A stretch of DNA of 64,000 nt from Mustelus asterias (taxonomy: Eukaryota): positions 558,001 to 622,000 of the forward strand of contig NW_027590190.1 in NCBI RefSeq assembly GCF_964213995.1, in the 5' to 3' direction. The notes under the pieces are model-generated. The model saw only the letters and a list, made by a program, of their open reading frames with translations, was not told the origin of the DNA and made no database searches. Positions 34,930-58,850 of this stretch are shown piece after piece (position 1 is the first letter of the stretch; every line of letters begins with the position of its first letter). The position numbers and the translations under genes are program-made.

Positions 34930-35149
34930 TGCAAGAATTAGATTCTGCTTTTAATCATATTGAAGACTAAATGTGTGGGTTAATCTTGATGTGTGTAAGA
35001 AAGCCACTCTCTTCCATGGTTTAGAGCTCCTAGATATGGAACAGAAGCTCCTTTACAACTATGTTTAGAGTCAGGAAGATTGCTGGAAACATGATGTCAA
35101 ATCAGAGATTGGTGTAAAACTGGGATCTGTTCCTGACTGAAAGTAAAAT

Positions 35150-35265
35150 GGTAAGAAGTCTCACAACACCAGGTTAAAGACCAAATAAACCTGTTGGACT
35201 TTAACCTGGTGTTGTGAGACTTCTTACCATGTTCACCCCAGTCCAACGCCGGCATCTCCACATCA
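35150..35265 (+). mobile_element. Penelope-like terminal fragment with 5' inversion
   Basis: GGTAAGAAGTCTCACAACACCAGGTTAAAG followed by its reverse complement and the CCAACGCCGGCATCTCCACATCA end. Confidence 0.8.
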
Positions 35266-42199: not shown

Positions 42200-43985
42200 A
42201 CCAAGTCCTGGTAGCATCCTCGTAAAACTTCTCTGCACACTTTCTAGTTTAATATTATCCTTCCTATAATAGGGTGACCAGAACTGTACACAGTATTCCA
42301 AATGTGGTCTTACCAATGTCTTGTACAACTTCAACAAATTGTGCCAACTTCTGCATTCAATGTTCTGACCAATGAAACCAAGCATGCCAAATGCCTTCTT
42401 CACCACTCTGTCCATCTGTGACTCCACTTTCAAGGAGCTATGAACCTGTACCCCATGATCTTTGTTCTATAACTCTCCTGAACTGAGTAAGTCCTGCCCT
42501 GGTTCGATCTACCAAGATGCATCACCTCGCATTTATCCAAATTAAACTCCATCTGCCATTCGTCAGCCCACTGGTCCAATTGATCAAGATAACTCTTCAC
42601 TGTCCATTATGCCACTAATCTTAGTGTCATCTGCAAACTTACTAACCACGCTGCCCATATTCTCATCCAAATCATGAATATAAATGACAAATAACAGTGG
42701 ACCCAGCACTGATCCCTGAGGCACACCGCTGGTCACAGTCCTCCCGTTTGAAAAACAATTCACTACAACCCATCCTCTGGCTTCTGTCAAGAAGTCATGA
42801 TGTGGAGGTGCCGGCGTTGGACTGGGATGAACACAATAAGAAGTCTCACAACACCAGGTTAAAGTCCAACAGGTTTATTTGGTAGCAAATACCATAAGCT
42901 TTCGGAGCACTGCTCCATCTGACGAAGGAGCAGTGCTCCGAAAGCTTGTGGTATTGGCTACCAAATAAACCTGTTGGACTTTAACCTGGTGTTGTGAGAC
43001 TACTTATTCTGTCAAGAAGCCAATTTTGTATCCAATTAGACACCTCACCCTGGATCCCGTGAGATTTAACCTTGTGTAGCAACCTACCGTGTGGTACCTT
43101 GTCAAAGGCCTTGCTTAAAGTCTTTGTCGATAACATCAACTGCACTCCCCTCACCTACCTTCTTGGTTACCCCTTCAAAAAAACTCAGTCAAGTTTGTGA
43201 GACATGATTTTCCACTCAAAGCTATGCAGAACTGTCCCTAATCAGTCCTTGCGTCTCTAAATGCCTGTGGATCAAAATACCTTCCAACAATTTACCCACC
43301 ACAGATGTGAGGCTCACTGGCCTGTAGTTCCCAGGCTTTTCCCTGCAGCCCTTTTTAAACAAAGGCACAACATTTGCCACACTCCAATCTTCAGGCACCT
43401 CACCCGTGACTATCGATGATTCAAATATCTCAGCTCGGGGAACTGCAATTTCCTCCCTCGCCTCACACAATGTTCTGGGATACACTTCTTCAGGTCCTGG
43501 GGATTTATCCACCTTGATGCACTTTAAGACTTCGAGCACCTCCTTCTCTGTAATATGTACGCTCCTCAAGACATCACTATTTCCCCAAGTTCCATGCTTT
43601 TCTCAACAGTAAATACTGATGAGAAATATTCATTATAGGATCTCACCCATCTCTTGTGGATCCTCACATAGGTGACCTTGTTGATCCTTAAGAGGCCCTC
43701 CTCTCTCCCTTGTTACTCTTTTGCCCTTTATGTATTTGTAGAAGCTCTTTGGATTCTCCTTTGCCTTATCTGCCAAAACAATCTTCTGTCCCCTTTTTGC
43801 CCTCCTGATTTATCGCTTAACTCTACTCCTACATCCCCTATACGCCAAGGGATTCACTTGATCCCAGCTCCCTATGCATGTCATCTGCCTCTTTCTTCTT
43901 CTTGACCAGGGCCTCAATATCCCGAGTCATCCAGGGTTCCCGACTTCTGCCAGCCTTGCCCTTCACTCTAAGAGGAACGTGTTTA
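42200..43985 (-). mobile_element. Degenerate CR1 ORF2 fragment
   Basis: KSPGPEEVYPRTL, ANVVPLFKKG...PGNYRPVSLTSVVGKLLE, GVPQGSVLGPLLF, KFADD. Confidence 0.92.
42795..43006. mobile_element. Palindromic Penelope-like mini-insertion with hammerhead (42915-42951) and 13-bp TSD
   Basis: TTCTGTCAAGAAG at 42782-42794 and 43007-43019; inverted pLTR halves. Confidence 0.88.
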
Positions 43986-47529: not shown

Positions 47530-48826
47530 ACGCAGGTGCAGATCGTACCCGAGGGAGAGGGCACTGAGGAGGGCTGGTGCCCCAGTCAGGAGGGAGGGAG
47601 TGCCGGTGTTGGGGGCAGCAGCAGTGGGGAGGGGGACTTTACTCTTCCAGCTCTCTTGGGCGCAAACTAAGTCCAGGGTGTCTTCCCCCCCCCCCCCCCC
47701 CCTCCCCCCCCCGGTGCAGTCTTCCCTCCCGTAGGTGGAAAAAAGTAAAGAAAGAGTGTGTCTCCGTGTCCTCTTTCCCTCTCTCCCTCCAGGGAGAGAG
47801 CACCCTCCAGCGGACCGCAGGCAGGCGATAGCTCACCTTCCTCCCCTTCCCTCCTCCCTTCTTCCTTGCAGGAAGCCAACAATTCTGCAGAAACAATAGA
47901 AAACGGGCGTCTCCAGCAAGCAAGCTCCAAGAAAGTGTGTTACTCACAGATGTTGCCCTCTTTTAAGGTCAAACCAAATAAACAAACTCAGGTTAAGTCA
48001 GGACAAAGTAAACGGGGCAGCTCCCCAAAAGGAGGGGGAACAGCCCGAACAGAAATCAAAGTACAAAGGAAACTTAAAGATCAATTTAAAATGTGATTAT
48101 TAGGGTCAATAATGCACCCCAACCTCTGCGGTGCTCAACGGGCGCGGAAAGTGTCAACCGCGCCCGTGGACACCGCATGCTCCCTCTCCAGGGACACCTG
48201 GCCGTGAACGTAGCTGCGGTAGAGGGACAGACAGTCAGGATGGACGGCCCCCTCGATCGCCCGCTGCCTGGACCGGTAAATGGTGTGTTTCGCCAGGCCC
48301 AGGAGCAGGTTCATGAGGAGGTCGCCATCCCGACCCTCTCCTCTCCGCACCGGGTGTCCGTAGATCAGGAGCGTGGGACTGAAGTGCAGACAAAACATCA
48401 ATAAAAGGTTCTTTAGGAAAACATAAAAGGAGTGCAGCCTAAGACACACAGCATAGACATGGTCCACGGACTCCACAAGGCCACAGAAAGGGCAGTCTTT
48501 GGAGCCCGTGAACCAGTGAATCCTACGGTTGTGCGGAACTGCTGCATGCATCACCCTCCACCCCAGGTCCCCGACGTAATTGGGGGAGATCTCTCCGTAG
48601 AGGGACCTCCACTGGGGACCTCCGCTGCCCATGGCAACAAGGCCCGCCAAGGTGTATCCGGGCGAGGGTGTGGTACTGGAAGGTGTGCAGCAGCAGCCCG
48701 CACAGGAAACGCCTCCGCGCGGTAGAAAAAGGCACGGAGGACATTTCCGCGAGGCGGCTCAGGCTGTGGGGCACCTCACCCAGGGAGGGGGGTTGAGGCT
48801 TTGGGCCAATGTGGAATTCCGTCTGA
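47530..48826 (-). mobile_element. Tx1-clade LINE: ORF2 3' end, 3' UTR and adjoining 5'-UTR-like sequence
   Basis: DLGWRVMHAAV...CPFCGLVESVDHVY..C (C-terminal CCHC), NLLLGLAK..IY..R; near-duplicate of 56650-58145. Confidence 0.85.
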
Positions 48827-51800
48827 ATGGCTATCTAGATAAGTCTTAAACGTTCCCAGTGTGTCCACCTCCACCACCTTGCCTGGCAGCGCATTCCAGG
48901 CCCCCACCACCCTCTGTGTAAAATATGTCCTTCTGATATCTGTGTTAAACCTCCTCCCCCCGCCCGCCCCCCCCCCCCCCCTTTCACCTTGAATCTATGA
49001 CCCCTCGGGGGAAAAAGTTTCCCACCGTTCACCCTATCTATGCCTTTTATACACCTCTATTAAGTCTCCCCACATCCTCCGTCTTTCCAGGGAGAACAAC
49101 CCCAGTTTATCCAATCTCTCCTCATAACTAAGCCGCTCCATACCAGGCAACATCCTGGTAAACCTCCTCTGGACTCTCTCCAAAGCCTCCACGTCCTTCT
49201 GGTAGTGTGGCGACCAGAACTGGACGCAGTATTCCAAATGCGGCCGAACCAATGTTCTATACATCTGCAACATCAGACCCCAACCTTTATACTCTATGCC
49301 CTGTCCTATAAAGGCAAGCATGCCGTATGCTGCCTTCACCACCTTCTCCACCTGTGACGTCACCTTCAAGGATCTGTGGCCTTGCACACCCAGGTCCCTC
49401 TGCGTATCTACACCCTTTATGGTTCTGCCATTTATCGTATAGCTCCTCCCTACATTATTTCTACCAAAATGCATCACTTCGCATTCATCAGGATTGAACT
49501 CCATCTGCCATTTCTTTGCCCAAATTTCCAGCCTATCTATATCCTTCTGTAGCCTCTGACAATGCTCCTCACTATCTGCAAGTCCTGCCAATTTTGTGTC
49601 GTCCGCAAACTTACTGATCACCCCAGTTACACCTTCTTCCAGATCGTTTATATAAATCACAAACAGCAGAGGTCCCAATACAGAGCCCTGCGGAACACCA
49701 CGAGTCACAGGCATCCAGCCGGAAAAAGACCCTTCCACTACCACCCTCTGTCTTCTGTGACCAAGCCAGTTCTCCATCCATCTAGCCACCTCCCCCTTTA
49801 TCCCATGAGATCCAATCTTTTTCACCAGCCTACCATGAGGGACTTTGTCAAACGCTTTACTGAAGTCCATATAGATGACATCCACGGCCCTTCCCCCGTC
49901 AACCATTCCAGTCACTTCTTCAACAACTTCCCCACCACGGATGTCAAGCTCACCGGCCTATAATTACCTGGGTTAAATAACGGGACCACATTAGCTATCC
50001 TCTGGGACCTCACCTGTGTCCAGTGACGAGACAAAGATTTGCGTCAGAGGCCCAGCGATTTCATCTCTCGTCTCCCTGAGCAGCCTTGGATAGATTCCAT
50101 CAGGCCCTGGGGATTTGTCAGTCTTTATATTCTCTAACAAACCTAACACTTCCTCCCTTGTAATGGAGATTTTCTCCAACGGTTCAACACTCCCCTCAGA
50201 CACTCCCAGTCAACACATCCCTCTCCTTTGTGAATACCGACGCAAAGTATTCATTTCGGATCTCCCCGACTTCTTTGGGCTCCAAGCATAATTCCCCACT
50301 TTTGTCCCTGAGAGGTCCAATTTTTTTTTCCCCTGACAACCCTTTTGTTCCTAACGTATGAATAAAATGCCTTGGGATTCTCCTTAATCCTGTCTGCCAA
50401 GGACATTTCGTGACCCCTTTTTGCCCTTCTAATTCCCCGTTTGAGTTCTTTCCTACTTTCTTTGTATTCCTCCAGAGCTCCCTCCGTTTTTAGCTGCCTG
50501 GACCTAACATACGCCTCTTTTCTTTTTGACCAGTCCCTCAATTTCCCTGGTTATCCACGGTTCTTGAATCCTATCCTTTTTTACGGGCACATGCCTGTCC
50601 TGTAGCCCTAACAACTGTTCCTTAAAAGACTCCCACATGCCAGATGTGGATTTACCCTCAAACAGCCTCTCCCAATCAAGAGCTGCCAATTTCTGCCTAA
50701 TCCCACTAAAGTTAGCCTTCCCCCAATCCAACACCTTACCCTTGGGACACCACTCATCCTTTTCCATCGCTATCCTAAAGCTAACAATTGTGGTCACTAT
50801 TTGTCACATGTTCCCCTACCGAAACTTTGAAGACCTGACCGGGCTCATTCCCCAGTACTAGGTCCAGTATAGCCCCCTCTCGAGTCGGGCTATCTACATA
50901 TTGTTCCAAAGAACTCTCCTGTACGCATTTTACAAATTCCTCCCCATTCAGAGTCCCTGCTCTCAGCGATTTCCAGTCTATACCAGGGAAATTGAAGTCT
51001 CCCACTACAACAACCCTATTTTTCCTGCACCTATCCAGTATCTCCTGACATATCCGTTCTTCCACTTCCCTTGGGCTGTTGGGGGGCCTGTAGTATACCC
51101 CCAACATAGTGACTGCACCCTTCCTGTTTCTAAGCTCCACCCAGAGTGACTTGTTACACAACCCCTCTGAATTGTCCTCCTTCTGCACTGCTGTAATATG
51201 CTCTCTAACTAATACTGCTACTCCCCCACCTCTTTTGGCCCCTCCTCTGTCTCACCTAAAACACTTGTACCCCGGAATGTTCAGCTGCCAGTCCTGTCCC
51301 TCTTTCAACCAAGTCTCTGTCACTGCAACCACATCCAAATTCCTTGTGAGCATTAAGGCCCTAAGTTTGTCTGTCTTACCTGCTACGCTCCTTGCATTGA
51401 AGTATAAGCACTCCAGACCTCCAGGCCCAGTGAGGTCATCCTCCCCCAGAGTGCACTTCTTCTTTGCCAGCCTTGTCCCAGCCCCAAGCTCGTCCCCAGC
51501 CTCGACACTTGTAGACCTAATATTTTGATCCCCACCCCCCTGCCATACTAGTTTAAACCCCCCCCCGAACTGCACTAGCAAAACTCCCAGCCAGGATATT
51601 CGTGCCCTTCCAACTTAGTTGTGACCCGTCCTCCTTGTACAGGTGCCATCCTCTCCTGAACTTCCCATTGATCTAGGAAAATGAAGCCCTCCCTCCTGGA
51701 CCAGTCCTTTAGCCAAGCATTCAATTGTACTGACTCCCTATTCTTAGCCTCACTGGCACGAGGCATTGGGAGCAGCCCAGAGATGGCCACCCTGGAGGCC

Positions 51801-52911
51801 CTACTTTTTAGTCTATTTCCCAACTCCCTGAATTGCTCTCGTAGGATCCCCCTGTGCTTCCTATCTACGTCATTTGCACCAGTGTGTACAATGACATCCG
51901 TTTCTTTATCTTCCGCTTTTTAAGATGCCTCCTATCCACTTGGAGACATCCATTACCCCAGCACCAGGTAGGCAGACTACCATCCTGGAGTCCCGTTTGC
52001 ACCCACAGAATTGCCTGTCCGTGCCTCTAACCGACGCATCCCCCACCACTATTTCTCTCCTAATCCCTCTCTTTCCTTTCTGGGCCACAGAGCCTGACTC
52101 TGTGCCAGTGACCTGGTCACTGTGGCTTACCCCTGGAGAGTCATCCTCCTCCACACTATCCAAAACAATATACTTGTTTTGGAGGGGGACAACCACGGGT
52201 GACCCCTCCACTAATTGCTCACTCCCCTCCCCTCTCACACCTGTCGCCGAGCCCTTCCTATTATGAGAGACAGCCACTGGAGTACTCTCTGGTACATTAC
52301 CCTTCTGACCTTTACTCCTCCTAACTGTGACCCACGTGTCTTCCTCCCGATGCCCCGGTGTAACTAGTTCCCTATAACTCGTGTCAATTATTCTCTCATT
52401 CTCCCTGACGAGGCCAAGGTCAGCAATCTGCAGCTCCAGTTCCGTGACACGGTCCCTCAGGAGCTGCAGTTCCACGCACCTGGCACAAATGTGGTCCTCC
52501 GGGAGGCTCGGTGTTTCCAGGAACTCCCACATCCCACAGCGGAAGCACAGAACTGGCCTATCATTCATAGTTACCCTTTTCCTATATATGTTTGGATAAA
52601 AATAACTTGCCCTGCCTCGCCCTTACCGCCTAAGCCCTCTGAGCCAAAGCCCTGCCAGCTCCCACTCTGCTTCACTTGCTCCACTGCCCGCTCGTAAGTG
52701 CTGCCTGTCTTTTAAAGCCAGCAACAAACCTCCCCAGGCCTACTTCCGGTTTTGAAAAAAAAACCCTCCGATTTTACGCACAAAATTAACTGAAAAAAAA
52801 AATAAATCTCCACTAAAAAACACTCTCGCTTACCCACAGCTCTCTCTGTGGAACAGTGAGGCTGAAACCTCCAAGGCAATCCCTTTTTAAAGCCAGCAAC
52901 AAACCTCCCCA
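48827..52911 (-). mobile_element. Near full-length CR1 LINE (ORF1 zinc finger / leucine zipper / SGNH esterase; ORF2 APE-RT), frameshifted, lacking terminal tail
   Basis: ORF1 CFRCGMW...HICARC..LRDRVTELE, IVVGDA..RG, CLPGA; ORF2 LYFNARS, VTETW, GVYYRPP, GDFN, LDLVL, SDHN, DFSKAFD, KFADD. Confidence 0.93.
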
Positions 52912-55100
52912 GACCGAGTAACCTGGGGTACATCCCATCCGGACCCGGCGACTTATCTATCTTGATGCCATTCAAAGATTCCAGCACAACCTCTTAAAGT
53001 CCACATACTCAATCTTTTCAGTCCACCACAAGCCCGCAGTACATCCACCCAGGTCCTTCTCCTCTGTGAAAACCGAGGCAAAATACTCATTGAGCACCTC
53101 TGCCATTTCTACTGGTTCCGTACAGATTTTCCCACCTTCACCTTTTATAGGCCCTATTCCGTCACGTCTCATCCTTTTACTCTTCACATATTTATAGAAC
53201 GCCTTAGGGTTCTCCTTAATCCTACCTGCCAGGGCCTTCTCGTGACCCCTTCTGGCTCTCCTAATTTCCTTCTTTAGTCCCTTCCTACAAGTCGTATACT
53301 CTTCTAAATCCCTATCTTCGCCAAGCTCTGAGTCTTTTGTACGCTTTCCTTTTCTTCTCGACTAGGTCCCGCACAGCTTTCGTGCACCACAGTTCCTTTA
53401 ACCGACCAACACCTCCCTGTCTGCTCGGAACGTTGTTCTGTCGAACTCTAGACAGACATTCCTTGAAAAACTGCCACCTCTCTTCAGTACATTTCCCTGA
53501 GAATACCTCCTTCCAATTTACTCCTCTAATTTGCTGTCTAATGTCTTCATATTTCCCCTTACTCCATATAAACACTTTCCTAGCTTGCCTGATCCTCTCT
53601 TTTTCCAATGCAAGCCTAAAGGAGATAGAGTTATGATCGCTATCCCCAAGATGCTCTCCCACTGAGATCTGACACCTGTCCAGGTTCATTGGTCAGTATC
53701 AGATCAAGTACAGCCTCTCCTCTTGTAGGCTTGTCCACATCCTGTGTCAGAAAACCCTCCTGAACACACCTAACGAACTCTTCCCCATCCAATCCCCTTA
53801 CCCTCGGGATATTCCAATCTATGTTTGGGAAATTAAAGTCTCCCATCACAACAGCTCTGCTATTACTGCATCTCTCCAGGATCTGTTTCCCTATCTGCTC
53901 CTCCACCTCCCTGTTACTATTGGGCGGCCTATAGAAAACTCCCAGCAAAGTGACCGGCCCCTTCGCACTCTGAACTTCCACCCACAGAGACTCGGTGGAC
54001 AATCCCTCCACAGCATACACCTTCTCTACAGCTGTGACACTATCCCTGATCAGCAGTGCCACTCCACCCCCTCTCTTGCCTCCCTCCCTGTCCTACCTGA
54101 AACATCTGAATCCCGGCACCTGGAGTATCCAGTCCTGTCCCTGAGACATCCAAGTCTCCGTAATGGCCACCACATCATACTTCCAGGCATCGATCCACGC
54201 TCTGAGCTCATCCCCTTTATTCACTATACTCCTGGCATTAAAGTAAACACATCTCAATCCTTTGGTCTGAGCTCTCCCCTTCTCTATCCCCCGTCCATCC
54301 TCCCTCTTGCACTGCCTATAACCCTTCTCTGTTTGCGAGCTAACTTCCTCACTCTGATCCCCTCCCCCCAACCTATCGAGTTTAAACTCTCCCCAGTAGC
54401 CTTAGCCAACCTTCCTGCCAGGATATTGGTCCCCCTGGGATTCAAGTGCCACCCGTTTTTTGTGTACAGGTCACACCTGCCCCTGAAGAGGTCCCAATGG
54501 TCCAGGAACCTGAATCCCTGCCCCCTGCACCAGTCCCTCAGCCACACATTCATCCTCCACCTCACTCCATTCCTGTCCTCGCCTTCCCATGGCACAGGCA
54601 GCAATCCTGAGATTGCTACCTTTGCTTTCCTCCTCCTCAGCTGTCTCCCTAATTCCCTATACTCTCTTTTCATGACCCCTTCCCCCTTCCTACCCACATC
54701 AGCGGTACCAATATGTACCGCTACCTCCGGCTCCTCTCCCTCCCCCCTCAGGATTTCTGGGACTTGCCCAGCGACATCCTGAATCCCAGCCCCAGGGAGG
54801 CAGACCACCATCCGAGACTCCCGCCTGCCTCCCCAAAATCGCCTGTCCGTCCCCCTGACTGCCGAGTCCCCGATTAATACTGCCTTCCCCTCTTTTCTTT
54901 AGCCCTCTGAGTTACAGGGCCGGACTCCACTCCGGAGGCCCGGCCAGTGCTGCTTCCCCCAGGTGGGCTGTCCCCCCCCAACAGTACTCAGGCAGGAGTA
55001 CTTGTTGTGTAGGGGCACATCCACCAGGGTGCTCTCAATCACCCGAGCTTCACCCTTCCTGGCTGTCACCCACTTGGCCTCCTCCCGTGGACCACCTGAT
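52912..55100 (-). mobile_element. Second CR1 subfamily fragment (ORF1 3' half plus APE domain)
   Basis: VVCLPGA...VHIGT (esterase), YFNARS, ITETW, FYRPP, GDFN, SDHN, ending at KSPGPDGMYPRLL. Confidence 0.9.
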
Positions 55101-58100
55101 GATAGGGACACGAACATTGGGGTGTCGCCCCAGTCCCCCGACATGCTAAAGAAGTCCAGGTTGTAATCGACCGGGTGGAACGGAGCCGCGGGGGCCCCGC
55201 TGCCACCCGGTCCCGGGGACTCCTCGACGGGGGACTGAGGCAGCACGCGTTTAGTTTTGTGCTGTGCCTTGCCCCCTTTTTTCTGGGGACAAGGCACAAA
55301 GACAGGTGGGGGCACGGCAGGAGATGACTCACAAGGGGGGAGGGGCACGCAGACCTCGAACACCGCGGTGCCCGAGGGGCCCTGTCTCTTTTTGTTAACC
55401 TGTCCTCGGGCAGGTGAGGCCCCTCGCCCTCCGCCCCTCTTCACCTTGCCGCACCCCCCCTGTCCCCCGTCATGTCCCCCCGAGGTGGCGGCGTCGCCAG
55501 TTTTGCCGGCTCGGGGTCGCCCACCCCCCCCATGCTCGTGCCCATGATCCCAGGCATCCGCGTCGCCGGACCCAGCACTAGGCCCCGGAGAGCCCACGGG
55601 CCCGGCAGATGGTGGTGGGGGGGAGGCGCAGGTGGAAACTGAGGTGGTCCCCGAGCTGGCTGCCGGGGTGGTTGGGGTGTCTTTCTTGGGGGCCGGGGTT
55701 CCGGTACCCCCCTTCTTTTTGATTATGCCCTTCTGGGCCTTTTGGCCACGCGGAGGCTCCGCTCTCCCCCCGCCGGCAGCTGAGGTGACAGCTGCTGCCG
55801 GCGTGGCCTCCCCTCGCGGGGGGGCAGATGGTACTCGTTTGGGGGGAGAGGGGGCTGCGGTGCCAGCTGCGGCTGCCTTGGGTTGGCGTTCGGCGGCCTT
55901 GGAGACGGGGCTGTTTTTCCTCACGTGCCCCGGCTCCTTACAGGCATGGCACCGCACACCGTCCGCGGACCAAAAGACCTGGTAAGTGGTCCCCTCGTGG
56001 GGGACATTGAACCCTCCCTCCAGTTCCTCCTCCCGGGCCAGGCGGACAAAAACCTGGCGCCGGAAGGAGTATATGTGGCGGAGGGAGGGGTCCCGAAGGC
56101 TGAGCGGGATCGGCTGCACCCCGGACCTGACCTCCCCCAGTAGATGGAGGTGGGGGAGGAGGAGCTCACTCGGTAGGAAGGGCGGGACGTTCGATATTAC
56201 AATCTTGTGGGCGGTGGCCTCCAAAGGGTCCACCGCCAGGAACGTCCCGCCCACCGTGAGCCCCTTCTCCAGGGCGAGGCGAACCGCCCGCTCGGCCTTC
56301 AGGAAAAATACGGCCTGGCCGTACATCTTTGAGGCCGCGACAATGGCTGAGGGGCCGACAACCCCAGCCATTGCCTTAACGCAGGCCTCGATAGACATGT
56401 CGGGGTGGGCGTAGCACTTCACCCCGAGCTGCCGCGTGATTAAAGAGAATGGCGGCAGGGGCTCTGGCAGCCGCCACGCCCACATAGGTGGGCCGAGAAG
56501 GCCCTGCCACCGGCGACGCTGGCGATGTTGCCATCCTTCCAAGGGAAGTGCTACGCCCACCCCGAGACTGCCCAGATGCACGGCAGGGTGTATGTGGGAT
56601 GGGGAAGATAAGGCAGGGTGGGGTAGGCGGGGAGGGGTGTAGGTGCTCTCTCCCCGGAGTGAGAGAGGGAGAGAGGAGGTTGGAGGAGCAGGAGGGAGAT
56701 GAGGCACAAGGCCGGTGCCCCAGTCAGGAGGGAAAAAGGGGAGGGGTGCCGGTCCTGGGGGCAGCAGCAGTGGGTGGGGGACTTCGGTCTTCTGGCCCTG
56801 TCGGGCGTACACTGTTCAAAAAGTCCACAGGGTCTTCACCCCCCCCCCCCCCCACTGCAGATGTTAAAGTCCGAGAATGCCTTCGCCCCCCCCCCCCCCC
56901 CCCTCCAGTCACTCCTTGTCCTCTCTTCCTCCCTCCCTCCGGGGAGAGTGCACCCTCCACAGGTCAGACGGCGGGTGGGCGGGCCAGACGGCAGACGGGC
57001 GGGCTGGCAGGCGGGCAAGCCAGGCAGGGCAGGCCGGGCGGGCAGGCAGGCAGGCGCTCACCTCCCTCCCCGCAGGGAACGAAAAACAAACAAACCAAAA
57101 CAACACAAAAACCGGGCGTCTCCGTGAGCAAAGACTGCAAAATAAAGTTACTCAAAAAGAAAAGAAAACAAACCCAAAGTTTCCGCCCGGTTCTGACCCG
57201 GGGCCTTCCGCTACACGGGCGAACGTGAATCCACTTTACTCCGGAAACAAAGTGTAGGTGTTGTCCTCTTTTTAGGTCAAACCAAACCAAGTAAACAAAC
57301 TCAGATTAAATCAGGACAAAGTAAAAGGGGCAGCTCCCAAAAAGGAGGGGGAACAGCCCGAACAGAAATCAAAGTACAAAGGAAACTTAAAAACATCAAA
57401 TTAAAATGTGATTATTAGGGTCAATAATGCACCCCAACCCCTGCGGTGCCCAGCGGGCGCGGAAAGCGTCAACCTCGCCCGTGGACACCGCATGCTCCCT
57501 CTTCAGGGACACCTGGCCGCGAACGTAGCCGCAGCAGAGGGGCAGACAGTCAGGATGGACGGCCCCCTCGATCGCCCGCAGCCTGGACCGGTAAATGGCG
57601 CGTTTCGCCAGGCCCAGGAGTAGGTTCACGAGGAGGTCGCCATCCCGACCCTCCCCTCTCCGCACTGGGTGTCGGTAGATCAGGAGCGTGGGACTGAAGT
57701 GCAGACAAAACATCAACAAAAGGTTCTTCAGGAAAACATAAAGGGAGTTGCAGCCTAAGACACTCAACATAGACATGGTCCACGGACTCCACAAGGCCAC
57801 AGAAAGGGCAGTCTTCGGAGCCCGTGAACCAGTGAATCCTACGGTTGTGCGGAACTGCTGCATGCATCACCCTCCACCCCAGGTCCCCGACGTAATTGGG
57901 GGAGATCCCTCCGTAGAGGGACCTCCAGTGGGGACCTCCGCCGCCCGGCGGCAACAAGGCCCGCCAAGGTGTATCCGGGCGACAGGCGAGGAGGCGGTAG
58001 TGGAAGGTGTGCAGCAGCAGCCCGCACAGGAAACGCCTCCGCGCGGTAGAAAAAGGCACGGAGGGCATTTCCGCGAGGCGGCTCAGGCTGTGGGGCACCT

Positions 58101-58850
58101 CACCCAGGGGGGGGCTGAGGCTTTGGGCCAATGTGGAATTCCGTCCGAACAGGGGAACGCTCGGGCGGGATCCCACCGCACGCCTGCGCCGTCTCCAGTT
58201 TGCGTGCAGTTTCGGGGCCGAGCACGACCATCCTATGGCTTTGGTCGCGCGCCGGACGGTCGTCCCCGCGCGCTCAGCCAGCACGCGGGGACTCATCCAG
58301 CCCGCTCCTCCGCCATCGAGCACGTCCCCGATTCTGGTCACCCTGGCGTCCACAGCCCTCCTCTCTGCCAGCCACCTGAAGTTATACGGCTGGAGGAGCG
58401 GATTCCTGAGCAGCGGCTCTCGCACGAGAGCCGCTACTCCTGACGGGGGAGAGCTGCGTCGCGAGGTGACCTTGTTCCAGACAGTGAGGAGGTCCTGGTA
58501 AAAGACGGGCAACTCCTGCAGGGTGGTCGAAGCACGCCCCAGTTCGATATGCAGGAGCTGCACGTCATAATTGAGGCCGTGCCACTGGCGGAAGAAATAC
58601 GTCGCCATGGCACACCACTGTGGAGGGGGCTCAACGTAAAGGTACCTCTGCAGGGCCTGGAGGCGGAAGGTCGCTATCTGAGTGCGGAGGCACACCAGAC
58701 CTTGTCCGCCCTCCTCAAGCGGGAGATACAGGACCGCAGCAGGGACCCAGTGCAGTCGATTGCCCCAGAAGAACCGCAGGAGGGTTCTCTGGATATCGGT
58801 GACAAAGCCAGGGGGAGGGGTCCGTCAATACAAATTGGCTTCAAAATATC
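55101..58850 (-). mobile_element. Tx1-clade LINE tail-to-head junction: ORF2 3' part (58850-57396), UTRs, then ORF1 (~56534-55101)
   Basis: ORF1 VGPSAIVAASKM..AVFFL, ISNVPPF, SFRRQVF, CHACKEPGH knuckle; ORF2 LQALQRYLY, LPVFYQDLL..W, EPLLRNP, CPFCG..ESVDH. Confidence 0.88.
57179..57248 (-). tRNA. tRNA-Val-derived pseudogene / tRNA-like structure (anticodon loop reads GTG)
   Basis: GTTTCCG-GAGTAAAGTGGATTCACG-TTCGC-CCGTGTA-GCGGA-AGGC-CCCGG-GTCAGAA-CCGGG-CGGAAAC aligns to vertebrate tRNA-Val; followed by T-runs. Confidence 0.75.

Follow-up and report, generated by a model that had tools for sequence, protein, structure and literature searches.

A host tRNA-Val sequence in the 5' UTR of one Mustelus asterias family of Tx1 retrotransposons and its possible use as an RNase P signal

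Results

The window, the whole stretch of DNA that was analysed, comprises 64,000 nt of the Mustelus asterias genome (NW_027590190.1:558001-622000); the genome-wide pattern searches covered 3.68 Gb. All the Tx1 features of the window described here are on the minus strand. A 5'-truncated Tx1 copy at 57265..58822 carries the end of ORF2 (zf-RVT, weak match) and a 3' UTR ending in ...AAAAAGAGG. This upstream unit ends at 57265 and is followed by a 16-nt leader (57249..57264), which consists of a copy of the insertion target, the end of a zinc-finger exon 1, and a U-run. Next is a tRNA-Val-derived cloverleaf (57179..57248), which is part of the 5' UTR of the downstream unit. The remainder of that 5' UTR (56535..57178) contains a T-rich trailer, GCCT repeats and two splice donors, a degenerate one at ~57153 and GGGAG/GTGAGC at ~57061. 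ORF1 (55010..56534, lower end approximate) has a weak Pfam match to a zinc knuckle and a frameshift soon after its ATG. In place of most of ORF2 there is LINE sequence with Pfam matches to a GDSL esterase and RT (48828..55009, boundaries approximate), which we take to be of the CR1 type, and the end of ORF2 and the 3' UTR of the same unit lie at 47957..48827. Since ORF1 is frameshifted and most of ORF2 has been replaced, this copy is dead. A tRNA-less Tx1 head remnant (CAACATCT/GTGAGT) with no ORF1 behind it occupies 47572..47956.

The sequence-only reading had noted that the junction at 47940-47960 lacks the tRNA. This was correct, and the tRNA-less head is common to 22 paralogous loci (L281-L302). 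The repeated segment, 47572-48827 in the window, includes the CR1-interrupted 3' part as well as the head remnant, and several of the 22 loci lie, by coordinates, 9-18 kb behind heads of different subfamilies. The recurrence suggests segmental duplication with head replacement. At 54284-56815, Tx1 ORF1 continues in frame into the CR1-type GDSL esterase, and just one stop separates the two; the same junction is found at L034-L036 and L038. The donors after the tRNA (57060 in the window, and in homologous heads) might allow a host exon 1 to be joined to zinc-finger exon 2 by splicing across the 7-kb insert. Elsewhere in the window, long inverted repeats of short interspersed sequence at 35148-35231 and 42831-43012 had miRNA-family scores below threshold.

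Read from 57248 to 57179, the 70-mer has an acceptor stem GTTTCCG/CGGAAAC, an anticodon stem TTCGC/GCGGA with one G.U pair and the loop CCGTGTA, and a T stem CCCGG/CCGGG with the loop GTCAGAA; T-runs come next. A host tRNA-Val (L137) compared with the window by BLAST gave 77.8% identity across 72 nt (E=9e-10), and the runner-up match had E=1.6. The changes include T54G, G57A, A58G, T13A and A42G, a replaced anticodon loop, a discriminator T at 57178 and a private G12A, by which one D-stem pair is broken. The B-box consensus includes T54 and A58. ARAGORN and Rfam made no tRNA call on the 70-mer, which has neither a tRNA model match nor, by base counts, an intact B box, and its fold energy was not better than that of shuffles (z=-0.9; second fold, z=-1.35). 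The sequence-only reading had described a tRNA-Val derivative at the Tx1 tail-to-head junction with perfect acceptor and T stems, a paired anticodon stem, altered loops, T-runs and a broken B box. All of this was borne out, with 78% identity to host tRNA-Val. Judged by sequence comparison, the 70-mer is host tRNA-Val sequence within the 5' UTR of a Tx1 family. It is fixed there, rather than being a one-off pseudogene in neutral decay with no tRNA association in other copies.

The assignment to Tx1, made by similarity ranking rather than from an RT tree, holds. An intact relative (L219) has an ORF2 of 1304 aa with an APE endonuclease and RT, 49% identical over 99% of its length to the Xenopus laevis Tx1 ORF2 (YTX2_XENLA); ray and horn-shark homologues were also found. 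The ORF1 zinc knuckle scored E=0.005-0.14 against zf-CCHC, short of the curated cut-off. Exact Tx1 3' ends numbered 1,443 genome-wide (control pattern, 3), and 7-kb head-to-tail arrays were present at four loci examined. The T-arm motif, with up to one mismatch, had 112 genome matches (control, 0). In 59 of its 62 distinct contexts the Tx1 5' UTR or ORF1 comes next; the 3' UTR of another copy precedes 25 of the 62, and nearly all the others stand behind a CCAAT-box promoter and an exon-1-like leader.

Long read-through ends run into CAACATCT/GTGAGT, a splice donor. Host-type sequence was found at 22 of the 35 inspected, and zinc-finger coding sequence lay downstream on the same strand in seven of these 22, within the flank examined, and on the opposite strand in none. 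The family inserts in multicopy C2H2 zinc-finger genes, ~10 nt ahead of the splice donor of exon 1. Its other sites are (TC)n near a zinc-finger gene start, where a younger, TC-type lineage inserts ~50 nt upstream of the exon-1 site, and its own heads, which yields the 7-kb tandem arrays. Exon-1 motif read-through was seen at 97 ends against 1,443 ends in total, counted with slightly different patterns and with TC-site ends outside the count; a published criterion for target preference is more than 20% of flanks in one class (PMC4494074, in part). Nearly all dispersed 3' ends start NCA(A), and target duplications of 13-15 bp were found in 4 of 27 scored copies. At L306, L310 and L357, the CAACATC target is adjoined by a different sequence end (...AAACAAAAAGAAAC), which may belong to a second retroelement family that uses this site.

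One option put forward from the sequence was a family that inserts at tRNA-Val genes and took its target with it. Dewa-like Tx1 elements target tRNA genes. In some tandem units (L305, L358) a near-intact tRNA-Val follows a Tx1 3' end, and elements and host tRNA-Val genes share contigs, as this option would have it. However, none of 90 dispersed 3' ends (90 of 100 listed, taken in list order from contigs C1-C3) adjoined a tRNA or had an A tail. The 69 near-intact tRNA-Val contexts comprised two Tx1 heads and 67 host genes, and no Tx1 3' end lay upstream of any of the 67. The Dewa-like feature, 3' ends adjoining host tRNA genes or spacers, was thus absent from the sampled ends and the host tRNA-Val contexts, and the tRNA-Val copies of L305 and L358 themselves lead into a Tx1 5' UTR and ORF1. 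The tRNA therefore belongs to the head and not to the target. The targeting option is refuted in this genome's sample, and we give it almost no credence as a general account. Host tRNA-Val paralogues (80 pattern matches) are found on contigs with zinc-finger clusters and Tx1 heads (C16, C71, C87-C124 and similar), and contig C16 also has tandem tRNA-Lys/Thr arrays.

The heads form a graded series from near-intact tRNA-Val to the mimic, with 69 down to 49 of 73 bases identical and Rfam bit scores of 60.6, 51.2, 47.4 and 41.6, then no match. At the near-intact end, the tRNA-Val of L201 has 69 of 73 bases as in the host gene, is flanked by two ~26-nt copies of the target sequence, and has the 5' UTR and ORF1 behind it; loss of T54 is one of its only four changes. 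The 3-nt leader of near-intact heads resembles that of the commonest host genes (CAGTT in 34 of 69), and a host-like trailer is present in one of these heads. Because these persist, a pre-tRNA was probably captured. In an ORF1 tree (67 rows, midpoint root), six of seven near-intact heads and three of four tRNA-less heads fell in one long-tipped clade, and all the mimics formed a ladder ending in near-identical TC-type copies; tRNA-less heads with ORF1 are mostly among the older copies. At L307 (G000:C613:~189.5 kb), the same zinc-finger exon-1 target holds a tRNA-Arg(ACG) that has a leader and a trailer and precedes a short Tx1 3' tip. On its sequence, this is a second, independent tRNA capture.

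Constraint on stems and loops was examined in 81 head contexts, which were gathered by similarity to the mimic and share history via segmental duplication. Alleles were counted as shared when found in three or more contexts. Among shared alleles, 14 were in stems (11 keep pairing, 3 break it) and 39 in loops, while private alleles included 20 in stems (4 keep pairing, 16 break it) and 11 in loops. Both contrasts between shared and private gave Fisher p=0.001, or 0.002 without CpG transitions, with the non-CpG alleles counted by hand. Divergence was 6-13% in stems, 30-39% in loops and 21-32% in the flanking UTR, which is of low complexity, so that alignment may inflate its value. Stem divergence was not below that of ORF fourfold sites (1-17%). 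The covariation test proposed for the mimic was run, and the signal across heads was not above shuffles (51/500); the single double change in stems was CpG-type and is found in host genes too. Pairing in the 7-bp acceptor and 5-bp T stem held in 97.4% of 588 cells.

T54 was missing in 79 of 79 heads and kept in 64 of 67 host genes; this was counted in a separate, unfiltered 79-head set, as the 81-context set had been filtered on T54. Among the 81, G54 was present in 73 and G58 in 76, so the U54-A58 T-loop pair is gone. U55-C56 was kept in all 81 and the D-loop GG in 64, and the 13-22 mismatch was closed in 74. The elbow bases (G18/G19, U55, C56) are recognised by RNase P and RNase Z (PMC4810234, in part).

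RNA ends recorded in DNA were sought with a pattern of an A8 tail after 8-24 nt of read-through, which gave 10 matches representing five distinct events (control, 1). All five poly(A)-tailed ends stop at 15-16 nt, after the U-run and within ~1 nt of tRNA +1, the RNase P site, with offsets of +1, -1 (or -2), 0, 0 with the last base different, and -1. This clustering has a probability of 2e-4 under a uniform null. Each of the five ends matches a different head leader, 15-18 nt long (L361 was paired with L158 by eye). None of the five carried host exon-1 read-through, though 22 of the 35 inspected long read-through ends are of the host type, and no AATAAA was found in the sequence before the tail sites. 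No target duplication was found around the five tailed copies. For L362, six of six uninterrupted homologous sites have one base at the position of its A11; the tail is not target-derived, because these empty sites have no A tract. L361 had one distant homologue with 4 A against 9, and no homologous empty sites were found for the other three copies. The tailed RNAs were judged not to be Pol III products, since copies of 446-635 nt span internal T-runs. A hammerhead-like reading of the leader was dropped by eye, as it had no stem III.

At the other side of the tRNA, position 73/74, the RNase Z site, is where one full-length 7.3-kb copy begins; it lies in a satellite and is present at two duplicate loci that count as one event. 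The 5' end of L377 is ambiguous (position 74 or 82) and was left out of the count. Among other truncated heads, two start ~50 and 75 nt after the tRNA and one inside it.

Several heads (L313-L315, L333, L336-L338, L351, L352 and the L180 type) are exact GT-AG spliced products. The RNA is therefore likely to be made by Pol II, probably from a zinc-finger promoter. One splice donor arose within the D loop of the mimic, and when it is used most of the cloverleaf is lost. For the TC-type lineage, which is the youngest, 37 of 109 leaders were inspected; no copy was tailed at +1, the mimic was spliced out in 9 of 37 heads, and 4 of 37 are partial. The one tailed TC-type copy, the dispersed L171 (G000:C3:156.44 Mb), has a target duplication and an A30 tail that starts exactly at a 5' splice site, past an uncut mimic. 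The contigs of three presumed-RNA runs did not cover the 70-mer; those of one other run did, with two variants known from genome subfamilies. These contigs were given no weight because contigs cannot show RNA ends.

Discussion

The second option raised by the sequence-only reading, that a captured tRNA mimic is used to cut RNA from tandem arrays, gained indirect genomic support from poly(A)-tailed copies that end at tRNA +1 and from the conserved stems. A possible course of events can be proposed. A pre-tRNA-Val with a 3-nt leader and a short trailer would have been retro-inserted once at the target, leaving a target duplication. The Pol III promoter would then have been silenced by the loss of T54 and A58, with the stems and elbow bases (G18/G19, U55, C56) retained; that a tRNA can lose the one activity and keep the other has precedent, as promoter and processing functions are separable (PMC6445147, in part). 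Pol II-made read-through RNA of an array would be cut by RNase P at +1 of the next head, and RNase Z may sometimes trim the other side of the mimic. The cut would leave a unit RNA with a 15-17-nt target-matching tail, sometimes adenylated; in the window, the leader at 57249..57264 would be the tail left on the RNA of the upstream unit. We lean, by a small measure, towards the mimic being an RNase P site at which the RNA of the upstream unit ends, 15-17 nt into target-matching sequence, and which is helpful rather than essential. The fuller proposal has an autonomous vertebrate LINE domesticating a host tRNA gene into a promoter-dead cleavage signal, with host RNase P punctuating tandem-array transcripts to give target-matching tails and the intermediates surviving in one genome. 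This we hold tentatively, somewhat below an even chance.

Several findings count against punctuation. Tailed ends make up ~5 of 1,443 (~0.3%), and some heads have ORF1 but no tRNA. There is no visible need for a precise 3' end, because the read-through match is just 1-7 nt long at 89 of 90 sampled ends. Full-length copies on target retain the leader that precedes the tRNA, and therefore many template RNAs were uncut at the 5' head. Also unfavourable are the TC-type lineage, in which +1 tails were not seen, the tailed copy is uncut and some heads lost the mimic by splicing, the covariation no higher than in shuffles and the stems no less diverged than fourfold sites. Because the leaders are so alike (15-18 nt), an end set by the tRNA boundary and one set by a constant distance to the 3' UTR are not directly separated. 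In human cells, most T-loop mutations impair 3' processing (PMC6445147, in part). The U-A T-loop pair that is lost in the Tx1 mimic is kept by mascRNA (PMC11693755, in part).

The rarity of tailed ends would also fit a cloverleaf kept for some other benefit at the RNA level, such as 5' end protection, cap-independent translation or splice control, with RNase P/Z cutting an occasional by-product. Splice donors inside and beside the mimic are used, intronic tRNA-like sequences are reported to affect splicing (PMC7722341, in part), and the L1Tc 5' UTR has an RNase P-sensitive tRNA-like fold proposed to be an IRES (PMC3383444, in part). We nevertheless consider such a role unlikely: the mimic is 640 nt ahead of ORF1, copies with the mimic spliced out still inserted, and neither the U-rich leader end nor the +1 tails in five head types would be predicted. 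Less likely still is a neutral passenger, a tRNA retrocopy that hitch-hiked in a master element, with the tails arising from ordinary cleavage and polyadenylation at a fixed distance from a weak 3' UTR signal. It would account for the near-constant 15-16 nt of the tails, the tRNA-less lineages, stems about as diverged as fourfold sites, covariation that is not significant and the fold z of -0.9. It is at odds with the contrast between shared and private alleles (p=0.001), a flanking UTR 3-4 times more diverged than the stems, the lack of host exon-1 read-through on any tailed end and tail sites that no AATAAA precedes.

A role at the DNA level was also weighed, with an A-box-like motif and the stems acting as a promoter or chromatin element for the retrotransposon, related to Pol III or TFIIIC. 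The element is located in bidirectional promoters and the D-arm motif of the TGGTGAAGTGG type is kept in most heads, as such a role would require. However, no head retains T54 and 76 of 81 have lost A58, T-runs follow the 70-mer immediately, pair-preserving change points to RNA structure and the spliced heads point to Pol II, and we regard this role as very improbable.

Little is known about how promoter-borrowing, self-targeting LINEs obtain RNA of unit length with a usable 3' end; the ribozymes of R2 and L1Tc solve the 5' end only. Punctuation by a tRNA, if true, would make retrotransposons dependent on the host in a new way. The graded series is a natural experiment in how mascRNA-like mimics arise and in which tRNA bases serve promoter and which processing. 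Should cutting prove incidental, the RNA ends recorded by the retrocopies are still open to direct testing. No report of such an arrangement was found in the open-access literature searched, and the accessible part of PMC13343379 makes no mention of Tx1 or tRNA.

Like Tx1L of Xenopus laevis (YTX2_XENLA), the family has two ORFs with an APE endonuclease and RT, and like many Tx1 families it may have a target preference (PMC4494074, in part). Unlike Tx1L and its relatives, it targets zinc-finger exon 1 or its own head, and not Tx1D, U2 or plain microsatellites. Its tRNA-derived 5' UTR also sets it apart, as none is described for Tx1 in the accessible part of PMC4494074. In tRNA-headed SINEs and small-RNA/LINE chimeras (SINE2, SINEU; PMC4494074, in part), too, the machinery of a retroelement placed a tRNA copy at the element's 5' end. 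SINE heads supply Pol III promoters, whereas the Tx1 heads all lack T54 and their RNA is spliced. In engineered promoter-dead tRNA spacers (Knapp et al. 2019, PMC6445147, in part), promoter activity fell with changes at T54 and A58 in a deleted scaffold and could be uncoupled from processing. Those spacers, unlike the Tx1 mimic, are artificial, tRNA-Pro based and bear other substitutions, and most T-loop changes in that work harmed 3' processing.

Closest in form are mascRNA and menRNA of MALAT1 and NEAT1, tRNA mimics that RNase P and RNase Z cut through the TSL+GG elbow (PMC11693755, in part). As there, a tRNA-like fold lies in a transcript, here a probable Pol II product, and its 5' edge would be the 3' end of the upstream RNA; the TSL+GG elbow is kept, and the Tx1 mimic has the 7-bp acceptor, 5-bp T stem, 7-nt T loop and C56. 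It differs in deriving from a real tRNA-Val with all four arms, in lying in a mobile element and in having G54/G58 in place of the U-A T-loop pair of mascRNA. The HDV-like ribozymes of R2 and L1Tc are likewise structured RNAs at the 5' end that would free the element from a host co-transcript (PMC12203849, PMC3383444, both in part). They self-cleave, whereas the Tx1 mimic would recruit a host enzyme, and the strongest evidence for it bears on the upstream unit, at its 3' end. The RNase P-sensitive fold of L1Tc is a proposed IRES and is not described as tRNA-derived in the accessible part of PMC3383444. Most likely, the Tx1 mimic would work like mascRNA punctuation and parallel the 5' ribozymes of R2 and L1Tc, as a member of neither group.
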